A stretch of 64,000 bases of DNA from NCBI GenBank assembly GCA_028713155.1, contig JAQTPA010000003.1, positions 13,966 to 77,965 on the forward strand, written 5' to 3'. The notes beneath the pieces are model-generated. The model was not told the DNA's origin. It saw nothing but the letters and a program-made list of their open reading frames with translations, and ran no database searches. Position 1 is the first letter of the stretch. Every line of letters begins with the position of its first letter. Positions 2,510-63,136 of the stretch are shown here, piece by piece. The stretch comes from Candidatus Omnitrophota bacterium (GTDB lineage Bacteria > Omnitrophota > Gorgyraeia > Gygaellales > Profunditerraquicolaceae). Both the position numbers and the translations under genes were made by a program.

Positions 2510-2537
2510 TTGACAAGGTAGAAAATTGTGTTATAAT
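2510..2537 (+). promoter_or_regulatory. Sigma70-type promoter of the rib operon (TTGACA-16nt-TGTTATAAT, extended -10)
   Basis: TTGACA at 2510-2515 and TATAAT at 2532-2537, preceded by TGT. It lies directly upstream of the FMN riboswitch. Confidence 0.5.
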
Positions 2538-2552
2538 TCATTACTAGATTAA

Positions 2553-2680
2553 TCTTCAGGGCAGGGTGTAATTCCCGACCGGCGGTAGCGCAGAAGCGCA
2601 AGCCCGCGAGCTTCCGATAGGAAGCATGATCTGGATAATTTCCAGAGCCGATTGTAAAGTCTAGATGGAAGGAGATTAAT
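2553..2680 (+). promoter_or_regulatory. FMN riboswitch (RFN element) aptamer
   Basis: CAGGGCAGGGTGTAATTCCCGACCGGCGGTAG...AGCCCGCGAGC...CCAGAGCCGATTGTAAAGTCTAGATGGAAGGAGAT matches the conserved RFN core (GGGCAGGGUGAAAUUCCCGACCGGCGGUAG ... GCCGACAGUGAAAGUCUGGAUGGGAGA). It sits in the leader of ribBA. Confidence 0.85.
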
Positions 2681-2690
2681 AATTCTTATG

Positions 2691-2716
2691 CCCGAAGATC
2701 ATCTTCGGGTTTTTTA
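2691..2716 (+). terminator. Riboswitch expression-platform intrinsic terminator
   Basis: CCCGAAGATCATCTTCGGG hairpin followed by TTTTTT, immediately 3' of the FMN aptamer. Confidence 0.75.
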
Positions 2717-2833
2717 TTGAGTGGATAACTTACGGAGCGCATAGCGAACGTAAGTTATAGCGAAGCGTCCGCGAAATAATCCCGAGCCTTTGACTAACGT
2801 TGTTACAGGCGAGGGATCTAAGGGGTACAATTT

Positions 2834-4045
2834 ATGTTTAATACTATACCGGAAATTCTGGAAGATTTAAAAAACGGCCAGATGGTTATCGTGGTTGATG
2901 ACGCAGACCGCGAGAACGAAGGCGATCTGGTTATGGCGGCATCTTTTGTCAAGCCGGAGCATATAAACTTCATGGCTAAGTTCGGCCGCGGGCTTATCTG
3001 CGTGCCGATGGAAGAAGAGAGGCTTAAGGTTTTAAATTTAGGGCCGATGCTAAAAGATAGAGGGGCTTTTGGACGGGAAGACCCTTTTGCTACTGCCTGG
3101 ATGATGTCTGTGGATGCGGCTAAGGGTATAACCACGGGTATATCCGCGTACGACCGTTCGCGCACAATAGAAGTTTTAATTAATCCGCAGTCTAATCCTG
3201 AAGACCTCATCCGGCCAGGGCATATTTTTCCGTTAAGGGCCATGGCCGGAGGAGTATTGGTGCGCGCAGGCCATACCGAGGCAACTGTTGACCTTATGCG
3301 CCTGGGCTCATTGTATTCAGCAGGCGTAATCTGCGAGATAATGAATGATGACGGCAGTATGTCGCGCCTGCCGCAGTTATTGGAATTTTCCCGGAAGCAT
3401 AAATTAAAAATCTGTTCCATGGCCGACCTTATCGAATACCGCCGGCGTTCGGAGAAATTGATTGAAAAGGTAGCCGAAACCAGGCTTCCTACGGAATTCG
3501 GAGAGTATAAACTTATACTCTACCGCGACCTGACTAATAATAAAGTGCATACCGCTCTTATTATGGGCCAGTGGAAGGATGAGCCGGTTTTAGTGCGCGT
3601 GCATTCCGAATGTTTAACCGGAGATGTTTTCGGTTCTCTGCGTTGCGATTGCGGCCGGCAATTGAACAGGAGTATGGAAATTGTTGGCAGGCAGGGCCAG
3701 GGCGTTATCCTTTACATGAACCAGGAGGGCCGGGGTATCGGCCTGGTAGAGAAGATCAAGGCCTACGGCTTACAGGATAAAGGATTGGATACGGTAGAGG
3801 CTAATGAAGCCCTGGGTCATAAGGCGGACTTGCGCGATTACGGCATCGGCGCCCAGATACTGGTGGATTTAGGGGTTAAAAATATCAGGCTGCTGACCAA
3901 TAATCCGCGCAAGATTGTCGGCTTGGAAGGCTATGGCCTGGCGGTGGTTGAGCGCCTTTCTTTGGAAATTGAGCCAAATCCGTCTAATTACCGTTATCTA
4001 AAGACCAAAAAGGAAAAGCTTGGTCATAATTTAAATATAACCTAG
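2834..4045 (+). CDS. ribBA: Bifunctional 3,4-dihydroxy-2-butanone-4-phosphate synthase / GTP cyclohydrolase II
   Basis: N-terminal DHBP synthase signature (VVDDADRENEGDLV) and C-terminal GCHII signature (CDCGRQL, zinc cysteines). AAGGGG SD before the ATG. Confidence 0.9.
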   Translation: MFNTIPEILEDLKNGQMVIVVDDADRENEGDLVMAASFVKPEHINFMAKFGRGLICVPMEEERLKVLNLGPMLKDRGAFGREDPFATAWMMSVDAAKGITTGISAYDRSRTIEVLINPQSNPEDLIRPGHIFPLRAMAGGVLVRAGHTEATVDLMRLGSLYSAGVICEIMNDDGSMSRLPQLLEFSRKHKLKICSMADLIEYRRRSEKLIEKVAETRLPTEFGEYKLILYRDLTNNKVHTALIMGQWKDEPVLVRVHSECLTGDVFGSLRCDCGRQLNRSMEIVGRQGQGVILYMNQEGRGIGLVEKIKAYGLQDKGLDTVEANEALGHKADLRDYGIGAQILVDLGVKNIRLLTNNPRKIVGLEGYGLAVVERLSLEIEPNPSNYRYLKTKKEKLGHNLNIT

Positions 4046-4070
4046 GGACGGGATTTAAGAACCGTCCCTA
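4043..4070 (+). repeat. Palindrome TAGGGACGG-gatttaagaa-CCGTCCCTA between ribBA and ribH, overlapping the ribBA stop codon
   Basis: Perfect 9-bp arms, read directly. It shares TAGGGA/TCCCTA arms with the palindromes at 36726-36744 and 55412-55430. Confidence 0.8.
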
Positions 4071-4090
4071 AAGAAAAAGGGGGGAGAGAG

Positions 4091-4558
4091 ATGATGAAGG
4101 TGATTGAGGGTAATTTAATCGCAAAAGGAAAAAAGTTCAGTATCGTGGCTTCGCGTTTTAATAATTTTATGACTAAAGAATTAGTTTCTGGATGCGTGGA
4201 TACTCTAGTCAGGCACGGAGCAAGTGGCGATGATTTAACCGTAACCTGGGTCCCCGGGGCATTTGAGATACCCGCGGTTGCGCAAAAATTAGCTAAAACC
4301 AAAGATTATGATGCCGTAATCTGCCTGGGTACAGTTATCCGCGGAGCAACCCCGCATTTTGATTATATCGCTTCGGAAGTAGCCAAGGGTATAGCCAGGG
4401 TTTCGGAAAGCACCGGTGTCCCGGCTATCTTCGGGATTATTACTGCCGATACGATTGAACAGGCAGTAGAGCGCTCCGGCACCAAGGACGGGAATAAGGG
4501 AAGCGCTGCCGCTTTATCGGCGATAGAAATGGTTAATATCTTAGAGAAAATAAAATAA
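4091..4558 (+). CDS. ribH: 6,7-dimethyl-8-ribityllumazine synthase
   Basis: [12 protein letters not shown]...WVPGAFEIP...[16 protein letters not shown] is the lumazine synthase signature. Confidence 0.9.
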
Positions 4559-4559
4559 G

Positions 4560-4976
4560 ATGCGTAAACGAACACTTGCCCGCGAATACGCCCTGCAGGT
4601 CCTCTATCAACTGGATATTACCAGTGATGCGCCTAAAAACGCGTTAGAAAATTTTTGGTCTAACCGTAAAGACGAAGAAATTGATGCTGTTTTGAAAGAA
4701 TTTTCTTCGGAATTGGTCAGGGGAGTAGCCCAAAACCTGGAAGAGATAGATAAAAAGATAGTTAAATATGCGGCTAACTGGCAGCTTAAGCGGATGGCTG
4801 TGGTGGACAGGAATATTATGCGTTTGGGATGCTTTGAACTCTTATACCGCGAGGATATCCCGCCGAAAGTTTCCATCAACGAGGCAGTAGAACTGGCCAA
4901 AAAATTTTCCGGTATTGAATCGGGGAAATTCGTCAATGCCATATTGGATAAGGTAAAGCTCGAAAAAAATAAATGA
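4560..4976 (+). CDS. nusB: Transcription antitermination factor NusB
   Basis: ARE.ALQVLYQLD N-terminus, about 138 aa. ribH-nusB adjacency is common. Confidence 0.85.
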   Translation: MRKRTLAREYALQVLYQLDITSDAPKNALENFWSNRKDEEIDAVLKEFSSELVRGVAQNLEEIDKKIVKYAANWQLKRMAVVDRNIMRLGCFELLYREDIPPKVSINEAVELAKKFSGIESGKFVNAILDKVKLEKNK

Positions 4977-5797
4977 AATCCGCGGATTTACACCTGCATA
5001 CCATATTTTCAGACGGTACCTATACCCCTGAAGAATTAATCAGTCAAAGCTTAAAAAGCGGATTGTCGGCTATCGCCGTAGTTGACCACGATACCGTAGC
5101 GGGCCTTGCCCCTACAATAGCCGCAGCCGGAGAGAGCGGCCTGGAGGTTTTATCCGGAGTAGAAATCAGCGCGGAGTATAAAAACCAGGAAGTCCATATC
5201 CTGGGTTATTTGATTGATTATCAGGATAAAGCTTTCTTAGAGAAGACAGCGTCCTTAAAAAATAATCGCATTGAACGTGTCTATAAAATAGTCGCTAAAT
5301 TAAATGCTTTAGGTATACCTTTAGACCCGCAAAGCGTATTTGACCTGGCGGCTAGCGGTACGGTAGGCAGGCTGCATATTGCCCGGGCATTGGTTAAGGG
5401 AGGGTTGGTCAGGTCCATATACGAGGTATTCCATAAATATATCGGAGATAATGGCCCGGCTTATGTTTTGGGATTCCGTTTTAGCCCTCAAGAAGCCATA
5501 GAATTTATTAAGAAAGCCGGAGGCGTACCGGTTTTAGCCCATCCCTATACTTTGAATAATGACGAATTGATTTTAGAGTTTGTAAAGTTAGGGCTTATGG
5601 GCCTGGAGGTTTATTACCCGGAGCATTCGCAGGGAGCGGTTAACTTTTATCTGGAGCTGGCCCGGCAGAATAATTTATTGGTTACCGGAGGCTCAGACTG
5701 CCACGGTAAAGCTAAGCCCGAGGTGCGTATCGGTTCAATCAAAGTGCCTTACGCGTTAGTTGAAAAGTTAAAAGAGGCGAAAGAAAATTTAAAATGA
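4973..5797 (+). CDS. PHP-domain phosphoesterase (TrpH/YciV family)
   Basis: DLHLHTIFSDG N-terminus and histidine/aspartate metal ligands spread through the sequence (VDHDT, HILGY, HPY, GGSDCHG). Embedded in the rib operon. Confidence 0.7.
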   Translation: MKSADLHLHTIFSDGTYTPEELISQSLKSGLSAIAVVDHDTVAGLAPTIAAAGESGLEVLSGVEISAEYKNQEVHILGYLIDYQDKAFLEKTASLKNNRIERVYKIVAKLNALGIPLDPQSVFDLAASGTVGRLHIARALVKGGLVRSIYEVFHKYIGDNGPAYVLGFRFSPQEAIEFIKKAGGVPVLAHPYTLNNDELILEFVKLGLMGLEVYYPEHSQGAVNFYLELARQNNLLVTGGSDCHGKAKPEVRIGSIKVPYALVEKLKEAKENLK

Positions 5798-6885
5798 AAA
5801 AGACCCGCGAATATTATATGAACCTGGCGTTGAAATTAGCCCTAAAAGGCAAAGGTAAGACTTCGCCTAACCCCCTGGTCGGGGCTTTGGTGGTAAAAAA
5901 CAACCGGATTGTCGGCAGGGGTTTCCATGGGCAGGCCGGACTTAGCCACGCTGAGGTTATCGCCCTGGATGAAGCCCAGGATTTGGCGGAAGGCGCAACT
6001 CTCTATGTTACCTTAGAGCCCTGTTGCCATTTCGGCCGCACTCCTCCTTGCGTGGCCAGGGTTATTAAAAGCGGAGTCAAAGAAGTTATAGTGGGCATGG
6101 TTGATCCTAACCCCTTAAACAATGGAAAGGGTATTGAGATACTTAAGCAGAATAAAATAAAAGTTAAAGTAGGTTTTTTAGAAGATAAATTAAAGCGGTT
6201 AAATGAAGTTTTTATAAAATATATTACCCGTAAAACACCTTTTATTACGGTTAAAGTAGCCGAATCGCTGGATGGCCGTATCGCCACCAGGACCGGCGAT
6301 TCTAAATGGATAACCTCGGATAAATCCCGCGGTTTTGCGCACCGGCTGCGCGCTGATTTTGACGCGATTATGGTCGGAGTAAATACTGTCTTAAGGGATA
6401 ACCCTAAGCTGGATGTCTGGTTTTCCAAAAGGCATCCGGTTAAAATTGTTGTGGATAGTCAGTTAAGTACTCCGGAAAAGGCGAATATATTCTCCGGATC
6501 AAACCCGGTGATTATCGCCACCCTGGCTACGCGTTTGGGCCAGGAGACCGAGAACAGGGCGATCCTGGCTCATAAGGCCAAGATTCTGGAAATTAAGGAG
6601 AAGGCCGGCCAGGTTAACCTGAAAGATTTAATGAAGAAGCTAGCCGGCGTGGGCATTACCAGCATCCTTGTCGAAGGCGGCGGAATGCTCATTGGTTCGT
6701 TATTTGACGAAGGCCTGATAGATAAAATAATGTTTTTTATCAGCCCTAAGATTATCGGCGGTAAAGATGCCATTAGCTCGGTAATGGGCCAGGGTATAGC
6801 GCGGATTGAACGGGCAGCGAAATTAAAGAATATGTCCTTAAGGCGGTTCGGGGAAGATTTTCTGATCGAGGGGTATATAAAATAA
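5794..6885 (+). CDS. ribD: Bifunctional riboflavin biosynthesis deaminase/reductase
   Basis: CMP/dCMP deaminase zinc motif HAEVIAL...LEPCCHFGRTPPC, followed by a RibD_C reductase domain. Confidence 0.9.
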   Translation: MKKTREYYMNLALKLALKGKGKTSPNPLVGALVVKNNRIVGRGFHGQAGLSHAEVIALDEAQDLAEGATLYVTLEPCCHFGRTPPCVARVIKSGVKEVIVGMVDPNPLNNGKGIEILKQNKIKVKVGFLEDKLKRLNEVFIKYITRKTPFITVKVAESLDGRIATRTGDSKWITSDKSRGFAHRLRADFDAIMVGVNTVLRDNPKLDVWFSKRHPVKIVVDSQLSTPEKANIFSGSNPVIIATLATRLGQETENRAILAHKAKILEIKEKAGQVNLKDLMKKLAGVGITSILVEGGGMLIGSLFDEGLIDKIMFFISPKIIGGKDAISSVMGQGIARIERAAKLKNMSLRRFGEDFLIEGYIK

Positions 6886-6886
6886 T

Positions 6887-7459
6887 ATGTTTACGGGTAT
6901 CGTGGAAGAGCTGGGGGTAGTAAAAAGAATTTCGCAGCGCGCCAATATCCGTCTTATTGAAATCAGCTCCGAAAAAACTCTAGCCGATGTAAAAAAAGGA
7001 GACAGCCTGGCCGTAAACGGGGTATGCCTGACGGCAGTAGAAATAAAAAAAGGTTATTTTGCTTTTGAGGTTATGCCTCAAACTTTAAAAGTAACTAACC
7101 TGGGCAATATCAGAGTTGGTGATAAAGTCAACCTTGAGCGCAGCCTGAAAATGGGGGACAGGATATCCGGGCATTTTGTGCTGGGGCACATTGACTGCCT
7201 GGGGATTATCCGTAAGAAAAATTACGCCGGCGCTAACCTGGCTTTTGAGATTGCCGTGCCTCCGGAATTCCTGGGATATTGTTTACCCAAAGGTTCGGTC
7301 AGCGTTGACGGAATCAGCTTAACTATCATGGCTAAGCAGTCCAATGTTTTTAGCGTATATATTATTCCGCATACCCTTAGAAATACTACTTTGAGTTTTA
7401 AGGGCCCATCGGCTAAGGTTAATATTGAATTTGACCTTTTGGCTAAAAAAGGCAAGTAG
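6887..7459 (+). CDS. ribE: Riboflavin synthase
   Basis: MFTGIVEE..G start and two lumazine-binding repeats (SLAVNGVCLT / SVDGISLT). Confidence 0.85.
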   Translation: MFTGIVEELGVVKRISQRANIRLIEISSEKTLADVKKGDSLAVNGVCLTAVEIKKGYFAFEVMPQTLKVTNLGNIRVGDKVNLERSLKMGDRISGHFVLGHIDCLGIIRKKNYAGANLAFEIAVPPEFLGYCLPKGSVSVDGISLTIMAKQSNVFSVYIIPHTLRNTTLSFKGPSAKVNIEFDLLAKKGK

Positions 7460-7480: not shown

Positions 7481-7509
7481 TTGCCAACCTAAATATTTTC
7501 TGTTATACT
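7481..7509 (+). promoter_or_regulatory. Candidate sigma70 promoter for tRNA-Pro (TTGCCA-17-TATACT)
   Basis: TTGCCA at 7481-7486, a 17-nt spacer, and TATACT at 7504-7509, about 60 nt upstream of the tRNA. Confidence 0.45.
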
Positions 7510-7572
7510 AAATTTAAATAATACGGGGCGTGGTCATCCTCCTTCGGGGGATTTCGCCACGCAAGATATTAT

Positions 7573-7649
7573 ACGGGGCGTGGCTCAGTTTGGTAGAGCG
7601 CTTGGTTCGGGACCAAGAGGTCGACAGTTCAAGTCTGTCCGCCCCGACC
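7573..7649 (+). tRNA. tRNA-Pro (anticodon CGG), CCA encoded
   Basis: Manual cloverleaf fold. Acceptor CGGGGCG/CGCCCCG, D-stem GCTC/GAGC, anticodon stem CTTGG/CCAAG, loop TTCGGGA (anticodon CGG), T-arm GACAG-TTCAAGT-CTGTC, discriminator A, then CCA. Total 77 nt. Confidence 0.85.
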
Positions 7650-7653
7650 ACTT

Positions 7654-7926
7654 ATGAAAAAGCAAGTCCAGGTTTATTATTCCGGGCGGGTGCAAGGGAT
7701 AGGTTTTCGTTTTACTGCCGAACGCCTGGCCGAAGATCTGGGTGTCTTAGGCTGGGTCAGTAACCTTAGCGATGGCCGGGTAGAATTGGTTGCCGAAGCC
7801 AACGAAGATACCCTTAAAGATTTCCTTAGCCAGCTGAACAATATTTTTAAACGCTATATTCAGGATATACAGATAGACTGGAAGCCTGCCACAGGTACAT
7901 TTAAAGATTTCGGAGTAAGATTTTAA
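7654..7926 (+). CDS. acyP: Acylphosphatase
   Basis: VQGIGFRF motif and about 90 aa length are typical of acylphosphatase. Confidence 0.8.
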   Translation: MKKQVQVYYSGRVQGIGFRFTAERLAEDLGVLGWVSNLSDGRVELVAEANEDTLKDFLSQLNNIFKRYIQDIQIDWKPATGTFKDFGVRF

Positions 7927-10408
<2,482 letters not shown>

Positions 10409-13207: not shown

Positions 13208-13594
13208 ATGTCTAGACAGGATAAAGTGTCCGAGGCGATCCGGCAGGAAGCGAGCGTGATTATTCACGATAAATTAAAAGACCCGCGTTTAGGTTTTATA
13301 ACTATTACGAATGTTGAAATAACACAGGATTTAAGATATGCCAAGATTTTTTTCAGCGTCCTGGGTAACGATGCTGCCCATAAGAATACAAAAGAAGCCC
13401 TGGATTCGGCTTTGGGGTTTGTGCGGAAATTAATCGCCCAGAGGTTAAATTTAAGGTTTGCGCCCGAAATTGCTTTTTACGAAGACAGGTCTAGCGAATA
13501 CAGCGTGCGCATAGAAGAGGTCTTGAACGAAATAAAGGAGATCGATGAGCAGAATAAACCTAAAAAAAGCCGCCGCCGCAATAAAAAAGTATAA
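13208..13594 (+). CDS. rbfA: Ribosome-binding factor A
   Basis: R..RV.E.I..E...I.....KDPRLGF.TIT.VE...DL..A.V..S matches the RbfA KH-like domain. Confidence 0.85.
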   Translation: MSRQDKVSEAIRQEASVIIHDKLKDPRLGFITITNVEITQDLRYAKIFFSVLGNDAAHKNTKEALDSALGFVRKLIAQRLNLRFAPEIAFYEDRSSEYSVRIEEVLNEIKEIDEQNKPKKSRRRNKKV

Positions 13595-14525
13595 TCGTTT
13601 TTTAATCAGTGCCCATACCAGCCCCGAAGGAGACGCCTTAGGCTCCGAGTTAGGCCTTTATTATTTACTCAAGAAGCTGGGTAAGCAAGCGGTTATTGTT
13701 AATGAAGACCCTTTGCCGTCGGAGTACTTTTTTCTGCCGGGAAAAGAGAGTATAAAGCTTTACCGGCCTGCTCTTAAAGACATTAATTTTGATTGCGCGG
13801 TTATTCTTGATTGTACGGATTTAGGCCGCACCGGAGAAGTGTCTAAGCTAATCAACAATACTTTGTCCGTTGTTAACATAGACCACCACATAAGCAATAA
13901 AAAATTCGGCACCGTTGATTGGGTTGACCCTAAATCCTCTTCGGCTTCAGAGATGGTTTTCAGGCTCTATAAAGAAATGCACGTGCCCTTTGACGCGGAC
14001 GCAGCCCTGTTGTTATATGTGGGCATGATGACAGATACGGGGTCATTCCGTTACTCTAATACCAGTGTTTTTACGCATAAGGCGGCAGGGGAATTATTAC
14101 GTTTTGGTTTGGATGTTCCCTTGGTCTATAGGAACATCTACGAAAAAATCCCTTTTACGGATATTCAGTTGTTAATTAAAACGCTCTTACATATACACCG
14201 CACATCCGGAGGAAAGATTGCCTGGGTTGAACTTCCCGCTAGGCTACTCAGGCATAAAAAATTATCCTTTGATTTAACCGACCATATCTTGAGTTTTATC
14301 CGGGGGATAAAAGACATCCAGGCCGCAGCGTTATTTAAAGAAAACCTGGGGGTAAAAAATGAGATCCGGGTTAACTTAAGATCAACGGGCTTAGTTGACG
14401 TGAATAAAGTCGCTCAAGCCTTCGGAGGCGGGGGGCACCGAACCGCTTCCGGCTGCACCGTAAGCGGCAAGCTTGCGGATGTGCGCAAAAAAGTCATTGC
14501 CAAGATACGCCAGGACCTAAAATAA
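13545..14525 (+). CDS. nrnA: DHH/DHHA1 phosphoesterase, NrnA-like oligoribonuclease / pAp phosphatase
   Basis: DHH motif (NIDHHISN) and C-terminal DHHA1 GGGGH. Overlaps rbfA by 50 nt, and there is no alternative in-frame start. Confidence 0.75.
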   Translation: MSRINLKKAAAAIKKYNRFLISAHTSPEGDALGSELGLYYLLKKLGKQAVIVNEDPLPSEYFFLPGKESIKLYRPALKDINFDCAVILDCTDLGRTGEVSKLINNTLSVVNIDHHISNKKFGTVDWVDPKSSSASEMVFRLYKEMHVPFDADAALLLYVGMMTDTGSFRYSNTSVFTHKAAGELLRFGLDVPLVYRNIYEKIPFTDIQLLIKTLLHIHRTSGGKIAWVELPARLLRHKKLSFDLTDHILSFIRGIKDIQAAALFKENLGVKNEIRVNLRSTGLVDVNKVAQAFGGGGHRTASGCTVSGKLADVRKKVIAKIRQDLK

Positions 14526-14528
14526 ATT

Positions 14529-15431
14529 ATGAAAATAATTCATGGCATAAATAATATCGGAAAAATCAAGAAGCCGGTGGTGGCCCTCGGGGTTTTTGAC
14601 GGCGTGCACCGCGGGCACCGCAGGATATTAAAGGCTGCCGCGCATAAAGCGCATACCATAGGCGGGACAAGCGTTGTCCTTACTTTCTGTCCGCATCCGC
14701 AAAAACAAGCCAGTCTCTATTCGCTGGAGCACCGTTTGCGCCTCATCGCCGAACTGGGGATTGATATCTGCGTGGTGATTAATTTTACCGGTAGTTTTGC
14801 CGGGATCCCGGCCGAAGATTTTATAAAAAATATTTTGGCGGGCAGAATCGGCGCAAAATATGTTTATGTCGGCAAAGATTTTCGCTTTGGCAGAAAGGCC
14901 CAAGGAGATTTTAACCTCTTAAAAATAATAGGGGAAGACTATGGTTTCAAGGGCCGGGGCATTAATATTATTAAAGTGCAGGGCCGGGCAATAAGCAGCA
15001 CCTTAATCCGCAGGTTAATAAAGAGAGGGGATATAGGGCAGGCAGAAAGATTATTATCCCGTCCGGTGAGTATTTTAGGGACGGTGATCAAAGGCACCGC
15101 TGTGGGCAGGATATTGGGTTTTCCGACGGCAAATATCAATCCTCACCATGAGGTCATTCCGGCTGCGGGAATATACGCCGTAAGGATAATTTTCGGCGGG
15201 GATAAGCTTAAGGGTGCCTGTTATATCGGCCAGAGGCCTACGCTTGAGCTAAAGAATAAAAAGGTGCACATTGAAGTGCATATATTTAATTTTAAAAAAA
15301 ATATCTACGGGAAGTATCTTGAGATCCAGTTTGCGAAAATGGTCCGGACGGACAGGAGATTTGCTTCCCTGGCGCTTTTGGCCGGGCAAATCAAGAAAGA
15401 CATAGTTCTCTGCAAAAGAATCCTCGCTTAA
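14529..15431 (+). CDS. ribF: Bifunctional riboflavin kinase / FMN adenylyltransferase
   Basis: N-terminal FAD synthetase signature (GVFDGVHRGH) and a C-terminal riboflavin kinase domain. Confidence 0.88.
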   Translation: MKIIHGINNIGKIKKPVVALGVFDGVHRGHRRILKAAAHKAHTIGGTSVVLTFCPHPQKQASLYSLEHRLRLIAELGIDICVVINFTGSFAGIPAEDFIKNILAGRIGAKYVYVGKDFRFGRKAQGDFNLLKIIGEDYGFKGRGINIIKVQGRAISSTLIRRLIKRGDIGQAERLLSRPVSILGTVIKGTAVGRILGFPTANINPHHEVIPAAGIYAVRIIFGGDKLKGACYIGQRPTLELKNKKVHIEVHIFNFKKNIYGKYLEIQFAKMVRTDRRFASLALLAGQIKKDIVLCKRILA

Positions 15432-61185: not shown

Positions 61186-62240
61186 AAATAACTACTATTG
61201 AGTGGAAGAATAATAAGATTAAGTTTATTGACCAGACAAAACTACCCCAGAAGTTAGAATATATTTATATAGATAAATTAAATGATTTATGGCAGGCGAT
61301 TAAAATGCTGAAAGTACGCGGAGCTCCGGCCTTAGGAGCGGCAGCCGCATTAGGCGTATATCTGGGGATTAAAGACGTTAAGGCAAAAGATTTTAACGCG
61401 TTTATCCGGGCATTGGATAAAGCGGCCAGGTATATCGCCGGTTCCCGGCCCACCGCCAGGAACCTTTTTTGGGGCCTGGAAAGAGCGCGCAGAGTTGCGC
61501 AGAAAAATAAGGATAAGAGCTTACTTACGCTTAAAAAATTAATCCTTAAGGAGGCGCGTAAGATTATTGCGGAAGACAGGCTTAACTGCCGCAGGCTTGC
61601 CGGTTACGGAAGCAAGTTGATTAGAGACAAGGATACTATCCTGACTATTTGTAATGCGGGCATACTGGCGACTATTGATTACGGCACAGCTTTAGGCGTT
61701 ATTTATCGCGCTAAAGAAGAAGGCAAGGGGATAAAAGTTTTTGCCTGTGAGACAAGGCCTTTATTGCAGGGCTCGCGCCTGAGCGCCTGGGAACTTAAGA
61801 AGAGAGGTATTGATGTAACGGTTATCTGCGATAATATGGCGGCTTCCCTCATGCAGCAGGGCAAAATCAATAAAGTCATTGCCGGCGCTGACCGGATTGC
61901 CGCAAACGGCGATACAGCTAATAAGATCGGGACTTATAGCCTGGCAGTTTTAAGCAAATACCACAATATTCCTTTTTATATCGCCGCTCCGGCTTCCACT
62001 TTTGATTTTAACGTTCAAAGCGGTAAAGATATTCCGATTGAAGAGCGTAACAGCCGGGAAGTCAGCGAATTGTTGTTTAGAAAGAGGGTTGCGCCGGCAG
62101 GGGTAAAAGTTTTTAACCCCGCCTTTGACGTAACACCGCATAATTTAATCAGCGCGATTATCACGGATAAAGGGGTTATCCTTCAGCCGTACAGGGAAAA
62201 CATTAAAAGAACGTTGGGCCAGGTTTTGAGGAAAAGATGA
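61182..62240 (+). CDS. mtnA: S-methyl-5-thioribose-1-phosphate isomerase / eIF-2B-like family
   Basis: N-terminus IKFIDQTKLP...VRGAPALG and the full-length eIF2B/MtnA fold. ATG at 61182; the ORF track begins at 61095 inside the upstream gene. Confidence 0.72.
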   Translation: MKITTIEWKNNKIKFIDQTKLPQKLEYIYIDKLNDLWQAIKMLKVRGAPALGAAAALGVYLGIKDVKAKDFNAFIRALDKAARYIAGSRPTARNLFWGLERARRVAQKNKDKSLLTLKKLILKEARKIIAEDRLNCRRLAGYGSKLIRDKDTILTICNAGILATIDYGTALGVIYRAKEEGKGIKVFACETRPLLQGSRLSAWELKKRGIDVTVICDNMAASLMQQGKINKVIAGADRIAANGDTANKIGTYSLAVLSKYHNIPFYIAAPASTFDFNVQSGKDIPIEERNSREVSELLFRKRVAPAGVKVFNPAFDVTPHNLISAIITDKGVILQPYRENIKRTLGQVLRKR

Positions 62241-63136
62241 GGCGCCTAAAAGATATAGGAGAGTTTGGCCTGATAGAGAGGTTCCGGAAATCGATCCGGA
62301 CAGATCCTTCGGTGATAAAAGCAAGCGGCGATGACTGCGCGGTCTTAAAGCTGGATAAATTAAATTATCAGCTCTTTACCTGCGATATGCTCGCAGAAGA
62401 TGTGGATTTTACCTTAAAAGACAAGCCCTATCTTATCGGCAGAAAGGCGATTGCCGTATCGCTCAGCGATATTGCCGCCTGCGCGGGCCAGGGGCGCTAT
62501 TGCGTTATTTCTTTGGGGCTGCCTAAAGATACTCCGCTTAAATTTGCGGATGAACTTTTTAAGGGAATGCGGGATATTTCCCGTAAATACAAGGTTAATA
62601 TTGTCGGTGGAGACTTAAGCCGTAGTAATAAAATCATTATAGACGTGAGTATGCTCGGCCAGGTAGAGAAGAAGCGCCTGGTTTTAAGGGAGAGGGCGCG
62701 CCCTGGTGATATTATCTTTATGACCGGAGAGCTCCAAGGGCCTGCTTCAGATAAACATCTTAAATTCACCCCGCGCGTAGAAGAGGCCAGGTTCCTGGCC
62801 CGTAATTTTAAGATCAACGCCATGATTGATATCTCCGATGGATTAGTCCAGGATCTGCGGCATATATTAAACAAGAGCGCGGTAGGAGCGGTAATCTATG
62901 AAGATTTGATTCCTTTGAGCAAAGGGGTGCGGAATTTATCCGCCGCCCTGAATAGCGGAGAGGAGTTTGAACTTCTTTTTACGCTTTCCCGGCGGGAGGC
63001 CCAAAAGTTATTAGCAAGAAAAGTAGCTGAATTTAAACCCATCGGCGAAATAAGAATGAAGCAATATGGTTTTAAATTAATGGACAAAAAAGAGCAATTG
63101 ATAAATATCACTCCGAAAGGGTTCAGACATTTTTAA
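62237..63136 (+). CDS. thiL: Thiamine-monophosphate kinase
   Basis: AIR-synthase-related N- and C-terminal domains (GEFGLIERF, GDDCAV). Confidence 0.85.
   Translation: MRRLKDIGEFGLIERFRKSIRTDPSVIKASGDDCAVLKLDKLNYQLFTCDMLAEDVDFTLKDKPYLIGRKAIAVSLSDIAACAGQGRYCVISLGLPKDTPLKFADELFKGMRDISRKYKVNIVGGDLSRSNKIIIDVSMLGQVEKKRLVLRERARPGDIIFMTGELQGPASDKHLKFTPRVEEARFLARNFKINAMIDISDGLVQDLRHILNKSAVGAVIYEDLIPLSKGVRNLSAALNSGEEFELLFTLSRREAQKLLARKVAEFKPIGEIRMKQYGFKLMDKKEQLINITPKGFRHF

Follow-up and report, generated by a model that had tools for sequence, protein, structure and literature searches.

Why should a riboflavin operon carry a phosphoesterase gene? In the 64,000-nt stretch of Candidatus Omnitrophota bacterium DNA analyzed here (contig JAQTPA010000003.1 of assembly GCA_028713155.1, positions 13,966 to 77,965; hereinafter designated the window), a protein of the PHP family is encoded between nusB, the gene of a transcription antitermination factor, and ribD, within an operon of the order ribBA-ribH-nusB-PHP-ribD-ribE behind a single flavin mononucleotide (FMN) riboswitch. 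The initial annotation of this locus preferred to see in the PHP protein the phosphatase acting on 5-amino-6-(5-phospho-D-ribitylamino)uracil (ARPP), and gave as its alternative an orthologue of RNase AM or of 3'-phosphoadenosine 5'-phosphate (pAp) phosphatase that travels with nusB. The comparative data favor this alternative: on the evidence of gene order, gene fusion and conserved residues, the PHP protein is probably a NusB-partnered enzyme of the RNase AM/pAp-phosphatase type. It belongs to a known enzyme family, and its placement in the rib operon is explained by nusB; the linkage and fusion of NusB and PHP across the Planctomycetes-Verrucomicrobia-Chlamydiae (PVC) group are the more interesting result.

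Scanning GTDB with one genome for each species gave 80 loci, nearly all of them labelled Omnitrophota, with PHP identities of 59-95%; the exact PHP protein of the window is itself on record from Candidatus Omnitrophota metagenome-assembled genomes (MAGs). In the assessable Omnitrophota loci, nusB lies immediately upstream of the PHP gene (79/79) and ribD immediately downstream (76/76), and an FMN element precedes ribBA in 59 of 61. The arrangement is not a product of chance. The wider synteny is kept as well, with pgsA-pgpA-thpR-cinA upstream and acyP-ligA downstream, and because this Omnitrophota-wide neighborhood is also conserved, gene order there shows inheritance rather than functional coupling by itself.

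The PHP family is large, comprising 3173 representatives at 50% identity with E <= 1e-30, and outside Omnitrophota the pairwise identity among non-proteobacterial members is 37-52% whatever the context. Two lineages, P0127 (50% identity) and P0128 (44%), retain ribBA-ribH-nusB-PHP-ribD amid wholly different flanking genes, the latter with no ribE and no FMN riboswitch found. In Scalindua, Brocadia and Jettenia, members of the anammox order Brocadiales, the order is tatC (on the opposite strand), ribH, a fused nusB::PHP gene and ftsY (L088-L093; for example, the fused gene at L090 7001-8308 and L092 7001-8281), and no ribBA, ribD or ribE lies within 7 kb of nusB::PHP in these loci. A third arrangement, assigned to Verrucomicrobiota from source names, reads nusB-PHP-ftsY, often followed by ribD-ribE (L132, L137, L145, L162, L163, L174, L175 and similar loci); its NusB and FtsY pass their respective equivalog cutoffs, and no ribH was found within 7 kb upstream (L132, L137, L162, L174). 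The loci of Brocadiales, Verrucomicrobiota and the P0128 lineage yielded no FMN riboswitch.

Metagenomes add further loci of these kinds. We annotated with hidden Markov models the best 80 of at least 597 confirmed candidates, ranked by likeness to P0128 (37-47% identity) and thus a non-random sample. In 44 of these 80, nusB lies directly upstream of the PHP gene, which is followed by ftsY in 20, by ribD in 16 and by no recognized gene within 600 nt in one, the downstream side not being assessable in seven. Another gene lies upstream of PHP in 24 loci, and the upstream side is not assessable in 12. Among the assessable loci of this set, none has ribD downstream of PHP without nusB upstream. 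The adjacency that the initial annotation proposed to trace in relatives holds in every assessable Omnitrophota locus, but where the rib cluster is broken in related phyla the PHP gene stays with nusB.

The two genes have become one in anammox bacteria. The NusB-PHP fusion was first met as two family representatives, and a search with one of them gave at least 120 clusters at 90% identity (P0170, P0290-P0408) carrying both PF01029 and PF02811. Their sources are Brocadiales, among them Scalindua, Brocadia and Jettenia; the proteins measure 425-470 residues, and the NusB half of the fusion, at 135 bits, exceeds the NusB equivalog cutoff of 88. Conserved translational fusions usually mark proteins that act together. 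In an AlphaFold2 model of the Scalindua fusion, both domains are predicted confidently and are joined by a disordered 22-residue linker (residues 135-156), with a predicted template-modelling score (pTM) of 0.63, a model that supports tethering of the two domains and does not support a defined complex between them. A limited full-text literature search combining NusB, PHP domain and fusion turned up no paper on such a protein, and a likewise limited search turned up none joining the PHP domain with a riboflavin operon.

Across the three PVC arrangements (Omnitrophota, Brocadiales and Verrucomicrobiota), the nusB-PHP pair is the only invariant. The simplest account is that the PHP gene follows nusB and that nusB follows ribH. 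The earlier claim is borne out that placement is predictive of function, but it is nusB, not the rib genes, that is informative. The second recurrent neighbor of the pair is ftsY, which stands beside it in both Verrucomicrobiota and Brocadiales.

The protein itself is unexceptional within the COG0613 (TrpH/YciV) branch of PHP metallo-phosphoesterases, which also includes RNase AM and the pAp phosphatase Cv1693, in agreement with the initial annotation. It matches PF02811 at 46.3 bits (cutoff 26.4). The top NCBIfam match is pAp phosphatase (3',5'-nucleoside bisphosphate phosphatase, NF041577) at 190.8 bits, below the equivalog cutoff of 400, and the next is RNase RNM/AM (NF047791) at 161.4 bits, below the equivalog cutoff of 375. 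The nearest solved structures by sequence are BAD_1165 (PDB 3e0f/3o0f), Cv1693 (2yb1), E. coli RNase AM (7ug9, which contains the PHP domain only) and V. cholerae RNase AM (9etk), with E = 1e-32 to 1e-42. An AlphaFold2 model (mean predicted local distance difference test 88.9, pTM 0.88) superimposes on BAD_1165 (3o0f), V. cholerae RNase AM (9etk) and Cv1693 (2yb1) with template-modelling (TM) scores of 0.88, 0.86 and 0.84, respectively. All nine ligands of the trinuclear metal centre of the PHP (beta/alpha)7 barrel are present (H7, H9, D14, H39, E64, H75, H190, D242 and H244), and the model contains a helical insertion, helices 86-157, between strands. An arginine triad, R99/R102/R133, aligns with R107/R110/R141 of RNase AM, and F153 aligns with F161; in RNase AM the three arginines form a positively charged cavity burying the 5'-phosphate of the first nucleotide, and F161 stacks on the base (PMC9410882).

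The nine ligands together with R99, R102, R133 and F153 are invariant in 118/118 Omnitrophota proteins, in 120/120 NusB-PHP fusions and in essentially all 161 sampled family members. A near-invariant Omnitrophota residue differs from the fusion consensus only at L134/M, Q220/P and A247/R; R138, Y192 and C243 differ too between the Omnitrophota and NusB-fused proteins, and none of these six positions is a metal ligand or a pocket residue.

Other phosphatase types were set aside. The PhnPP-type cyclic phosphate dihydrolase model (NF041661) scores 112.2 bits against a cutoff of 500, and no phn genes are among the neighbors; the HisJ-type histidinol-phosphate phosphatase model (TIGR01856) scores 21.7 bits against 90.2, with a TM score of 0.31 to PDB 2yxo; and the PHP fold rejects both the haloacid dehalogenase (HAD) type with its DxD motif and the histidine phosphatase type with its RHG motif.

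In COG0613 enzymes such as Cv1693, RNase AM and PhnPP, the arginine pocket anchors a ribose 5-phosphate and the metal site hydrolyzes a second phosphoester. By analogy, the arginine pocket of the PHP enzyme would most likely anchor the 5'-phosphate of a nucleotide and the phenylalanine stack on its base, placing the phosphoester on the 3' side for cleavage at the trinuclear metal centre. Such chemistry would convert pAp to adenosine monophosphate (AMP) and inorganic phosphate, or trim 5'-monophosphorylated RNA in the 5'-to-3' direction. The functional partner would be NusB rather than the riboflavin enzymes: at the boxA of rRNA leaders, NusB may work with the PHP enzyme, or bring it, for processing or clean-up of the 5' ends of rRNA precursors. 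The seat of the gene in the rib operon would then be due solely to an ancient linkage of nusB and ribH. We favor a NusB partnership because comparative gene order and the fusion point to it and because the known activities of the family accord with an RNA partner. The 5S, 16S and 23S rRNAs acquire their mature 5' ends through RNase AM (PMC7261194), which also degrades short 5'-phosphorylated RNAs and diribonucleotides (PMC11528712), and NusB binds the boxA of the rRNA leader within the antitermination complex (PMC10250234).

Among comparable systems, the PHP protein shares with RNase AM (E. coli YciV/TrpH and its V. cholerae counterpart) the PHP barrel with helical insertion, the nine ligands, the arginine triad and the phenylalanine, and the rRNA 5' maturation role of that enzyme (PMC7261194) suits an RNA-related partner such as NusB; unlike RNase AM, it lacks the arginine of the AHPGR motif, is only about 35% identical, and is encoded next to or fused with nusB. 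Cv1693 of Chromobacterium violaceum, whose structure 2yb1 contains bound Mn, AMP and phosphate, is the characterized member of the top-scoring family, and its AMP-contacting residues are conserved here; identity to it is again about 35%, and the family score (190.8 bits vs 400) is low. Because the window also holds an NrnA-like candidate for pAp hydrolysis, a Cv1693-type function may lie with another protein. The COG0613 protein BAD_1165 (Bifidobacterium adolescentis) is the closest structure whether judged by sequence (E = 1e-35 to 1e-42) or by fold (34% identity). SuhB, a component of the E. coli rRNA antitermination complex, shows that a protein with a phosphatase fold can act on nascent rRNA together with NusB/NusE (PMC10250234), but it has an inositol monophosphatase fold instead of a PHP fold, and any part that the PHP protein might play in that complex is purely hypothetical.

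Several observations weigh against a NusB-partnered enzyme of the RNase AM/pAp-phosphatase type. Identity to characterized enzymes is only about 35%, and the protein falls under the NCBIfam cutoffs of both RNase RNM and pAp phosphatase. In RNase AM the scissile phosphate is contacted by R201 of the AHPGR motif, a position occupied by Thr, Ile or Ser in Omnitrophota. A neighbor-joining tree of 159 family members is star-like and does not resolve the nusB-linked (or the rib-linked) PHP proteins as a single clade, and the model of the Scalindua fusion contains no confident interface between its NusB and PHP domains. No nusB-linked arrangement seen has its nearest rib gene more than two genes off (in Brocadiales it is ribH, in many Verrucomicrobiota the ribD that comes after ftsY), which leaves some probability to a riboflavin link. 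The whole Omnitrophota unit, nusB included, lies behind an FMN riboswitch, which is odd for housekeeping genes: of 651 transcription units with an FMN riboswitch in a published survey, only 5 contained nusB (PMC5312566).

A more specific proposal is possible, if doubtful: the PHP enzyme of PVC bacteria, as an RNase AM-like nuclease or phosphatase dependent on a 5'-phosphate, may be tethered through boxA-bound NusB to the antitermination complex on nascent rRNA, so that 5'-end trimming is coupled to transcription. In anammox bacteria the fusion would make this link covalent, whereas Omnitrophota and Verrucomicrobiota would rely on a non-covalent one, and in Omnitrophota the module, nusB included, would additionally be under FMN-riboswitch control.

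The operon of the window was delineated from the open reading frame (ORF) listing and from Pfam, NCBIfam and Rfam scans. All features lie on the plus strand:
2510-2537, +: sigma-70-type promoter predicted in silico, TTGACA, 16-nt spacer, TATAAT, with a TG extension (12/12 consensus match)
2548-2680, +: FMN riboswitch aptamer (RFN element; Rfam RF00050, full-length model match, 106.6 bits vs gathering score 66.2)
2690-2718, +: intrinsic-terminator-like hairpin with T-run, GCCCGAAGATCATCTTCGGGTTTTTTATT, 9-bp GC-rich stem, between aptamer and ribBA
2834-4045, +: ribBA, DHBP synthase/GTP cyclohydrolase II (PF00926, DHBP_synthase, and PF00925, GTP_cyclohydro2; NF006803 591.6 bits, cutoff 569)
4091-4558, +: ribH, lumazine synthase (TIGR00114 175.4 bits, cutoff 84.6)
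4560-4976, +: nusB, antitermination factor (TIGR01951 149.4 bits, cutoff 88.35)
4973-5797, +: PHP phosphoesterase of COG0613/TrpH-YciV type, 274 residues (PF02811)
5794-6885, +: ribD, deaminase/reductase (TIGR00326 365.8 bits, cutoff 156.35)
6887-7459, +: ribE, riboflavin synthase (NF006767 217.4 bits, cutoff 155)

The layout described in the initial annotation matches exactly in coordinates, reading frames and families. Upstream of ribBA lie, in order, the consensus promoter, the riboswitch and the terminator hairpin. The aptamer, well above its gathering score, is the only FMN riboswitch found by the Rfam scan and is followed by a putative expression platform and then the first gene of the operon. 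The hairpin is likely that expression platform, and aptamer plus hairpin ahead of ribBA form the layout of a transcription-terminating riboswitch. ATGA overlaps of 4 nt join the nusB stop to the PHP start and the PHP stop to the ribD start, and a promoter scan found no internal promoter of comparable strength within the operon, an organization suggesting that its genes are co-transcribed. At 2510-4976 the housekeeping gene nusB is thus preceded by an FMN riboswitch and lacks any obvious internal promoter, a placement conserved across Omnitrophota. Among the genes of rib operons, nusB is already documented as a passenger unrelated to riboflavin (PMC5312566). Matches to the boxA sequence GCTCTTTAACAA with at most two mismatches occur near the operon at chance level (11 found vs 8.5 expected), none of them in the rib leader.

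Would a generic housekeeping role suffice? The PHP protein might be a pAp phosphatase or nanoRNase of the TrpH family with no tie to NusB or riboflavin, its position being neutral gene order inherited in PVC bacteria. The pAp phosphatase model is indeed its top NCBIfam match, and in other phyla the family occurs in many unrelated contexts. Homologue P0283 (43% identity) has on one side an AAA-ATPase gene, which follows lon, and on the other a peptidase gene; in Desulfobacca acetoxidans (CP002629, L094; 47-48%) the homologue lies between a cytidine-deaminase gene and trpG-trpE; that of L098 (47-48%) follows trpCF-trpB-trpA, an SMC-like gene and one ORF and precedes aroQ; in a Firmicute MAG the order is RNase Y, one gene, YmdB and the PHP homologue; and on an Elusimicrobia-type contig a PhoH-PIN gene overlaps the homologue. 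The strong general synteny of Omnitrophota likewise makes part of the conservation simple inheritance. Against neutrality, the nusB-PHP adjacency outlasts the rearrangement of everything else across three phyla, and a translational fusion kept throughout Brocadiales is hard to square with it; the window, moreover, already holds an NrnA-like DHH candidate for a pAp phosphatase/nanoRNase (13545-14525, below its family cutoff). We regard a purely generic role as unlikely. No second PHP paralogue was found in the window, which is part of the genome, so that this carries little weight.

Two of these contexts, L094 and L098, come from unrelated genomes and place COG0613 homologues near trp genes, recalling E. 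coli trpH (yciV), which lies by the trp operon. The homologues of L094, L098, L097 and L095 show 46-48% identity, and at L097 cinA and thpR lie about 5 kb upstream of the homologue, as they do beside the rib operon of the window.

The ARPP reading would make the PHP enzyme a dedicated phosphatase converting the RibD product into the RibH substrate, in place of HAD or histidine-family phosphatases, and, if correct, a new, third type of such enzyme. The step has no universal enzyme, its known solutions are unrelated folds (HAD phosphatases and the Aquifex histidine-family phosphatase; PMC12051542), and true monoesterases exist among PHP enzymes. In every assessable Omnitrophota locus the gene sits between ribH/nusB and ribD, translationally coupled to ribD and usually behind the riboswitch; the P0127 and P0128 lineages share the rib order despite their different flanking genes; and elsewhere a rib gene remains near nusB-PHP (ribH in Brocadiales; ribD and ribE after ftsY in many Verrucomicrobiota). 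A weak further point is that a search of the 64-kb window, a part of the genome, for HAD-like and histidine-phosphatase motifs found none.

Set against this, PHP is never beside a rib gene without nusB in the loci seen, and it is fused to NusB across a whole bacterial order. RibD, which would produce the substrate, is not nearby in Brocadiales, and RibH, which would consume the product, is not nearby in Verrucomicrobiota, so that neither is a constant neighbor. The three-arginine pocket for a second phosphate and the stacking phenylalanine are invariant, yet ARPP carries a single phosphate, so that the pocket for the 5'-phosphate would stay unused. No signature among catalytic or pocket residues separates the rib-embedded PHP proteins from NusB-fused or unlinked homologues, and equally similar homologues (43-48% identity) occur in non-rib contexts of other phyla. 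The known ARPP phosphatases (the HAD proteins YigB/YbjI of E. coli, YcsE/YitU/YwtE of B. subtilis and PyrP2 of plants, and the histidine-family enzyme of Aquifex aeolicus) resemble the PHP protein only in the hypothetical reaction and in rib proximity; they have unrelated folds with an Asp or His nucleophile instead of a trinuclear metal centre (PMC12051542), and none is linked to nusB. The preferred reading of the initial annotation has thus gained nothing beyond adjacency and has been weakened by the gene's attachment to nusB, by the invariant pocket and by the non-rib homologues; we consider it quite improbable.

A role in flavin-nucleotide chemistry other than ARPP, such as the deFADding of RNA or other hydrolysis linked to FMN or flavin adenine dinucleotide (FAD), would explain why 59 of 61 Omnitrophota loci have the gene downstream of an FMN riboswitch and has a precedent in RNase AM, which removes FAD caps in vitro and affects levels of FAD-capped RNA in vivo through pocket residues conserved here (PMC9410882), but it is very improbable, since the riboswitch did not turn up in the Brocadiales, Verrucomicrobiota and P0128 arrangements, making FMN control no family trait, and since deFADding by RNase AM could not be told apart from its ordinary 5'-phosphate exonuclease activity (PMC9410882).

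For riboflavin biology the result is mostly negative: position does not justify calling the PHP gene the missing ARPP phosphatase, since rib operons also carry genes foreign to riboflavin synthesis, as nusB demonstrates. On the positive side stands a nusB-PHP gene pair that spans phyla and is a single protein in anammox bacteria. The pair provides a lead on the roles of TrpH/RNase AM-type enzymes outside gamma-proteobacteria and on a possible physical coupling of rRNA 5'-end processing to the Nus antitermination machinery. The Omnitrophota loci also provide something rare, a conserved placement of nusB downstream of an FMN riboswitch.

The NrnA-like DHH/DHHA1 gene of the window stands in a group at 13208-15431, between rbfA (13208-13594), whose end it overlaps by 50 nt, and ribF (14529-15431). 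It scores 131.7 bits for NF053633, below the cutoff of 350. A candidate nanoRNase/pAp phosphatase here adjoins the flavokinase/FAD synthetase gene, both outside riboswitch control.

In the P0128 lineage, a nitroreductase-family gene replaces ribE after ribD, which it overlaps by 4 nt (L083 9901-10488, L084 4946-5533); the product gives weak partial matches to BluB and to the FbiB C-terminal domain. A V_AS9 (Vibrio antisense RNA) Rfam match inside ribBA of another locus (L081 5885-5987, minus strand) scores 50.1, right at the gathering threshold of 50, and is probably a chance match to conserved coding sequence.

Around the rib operon of the window, 404-2488 and 7654-9918 hold pgsA-pgpA, the divergent thpR (RNA 2',3'-cyclic phosphodiesterase) and a cinA/pncC-domain gene on the upstream side, and the acylphosphatase gene and ligA on the downstream side. 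An operon of V. cholerae links pgpA and thiL to ribH-nusB (PMC5312566); unlike in V. cholerae, pgpA and thiL (62237-63136) lie apart from ribH-nusB in the window. Directly after ribE, a tRNA-Pro(CGG) gene (7574-7650) has its own promoter-like site (7481-7509) and keeps this position in other Omnitrophota loci (L004, L024 and L060); the ORF that overlaps it (7530-7763) is probably spurious.

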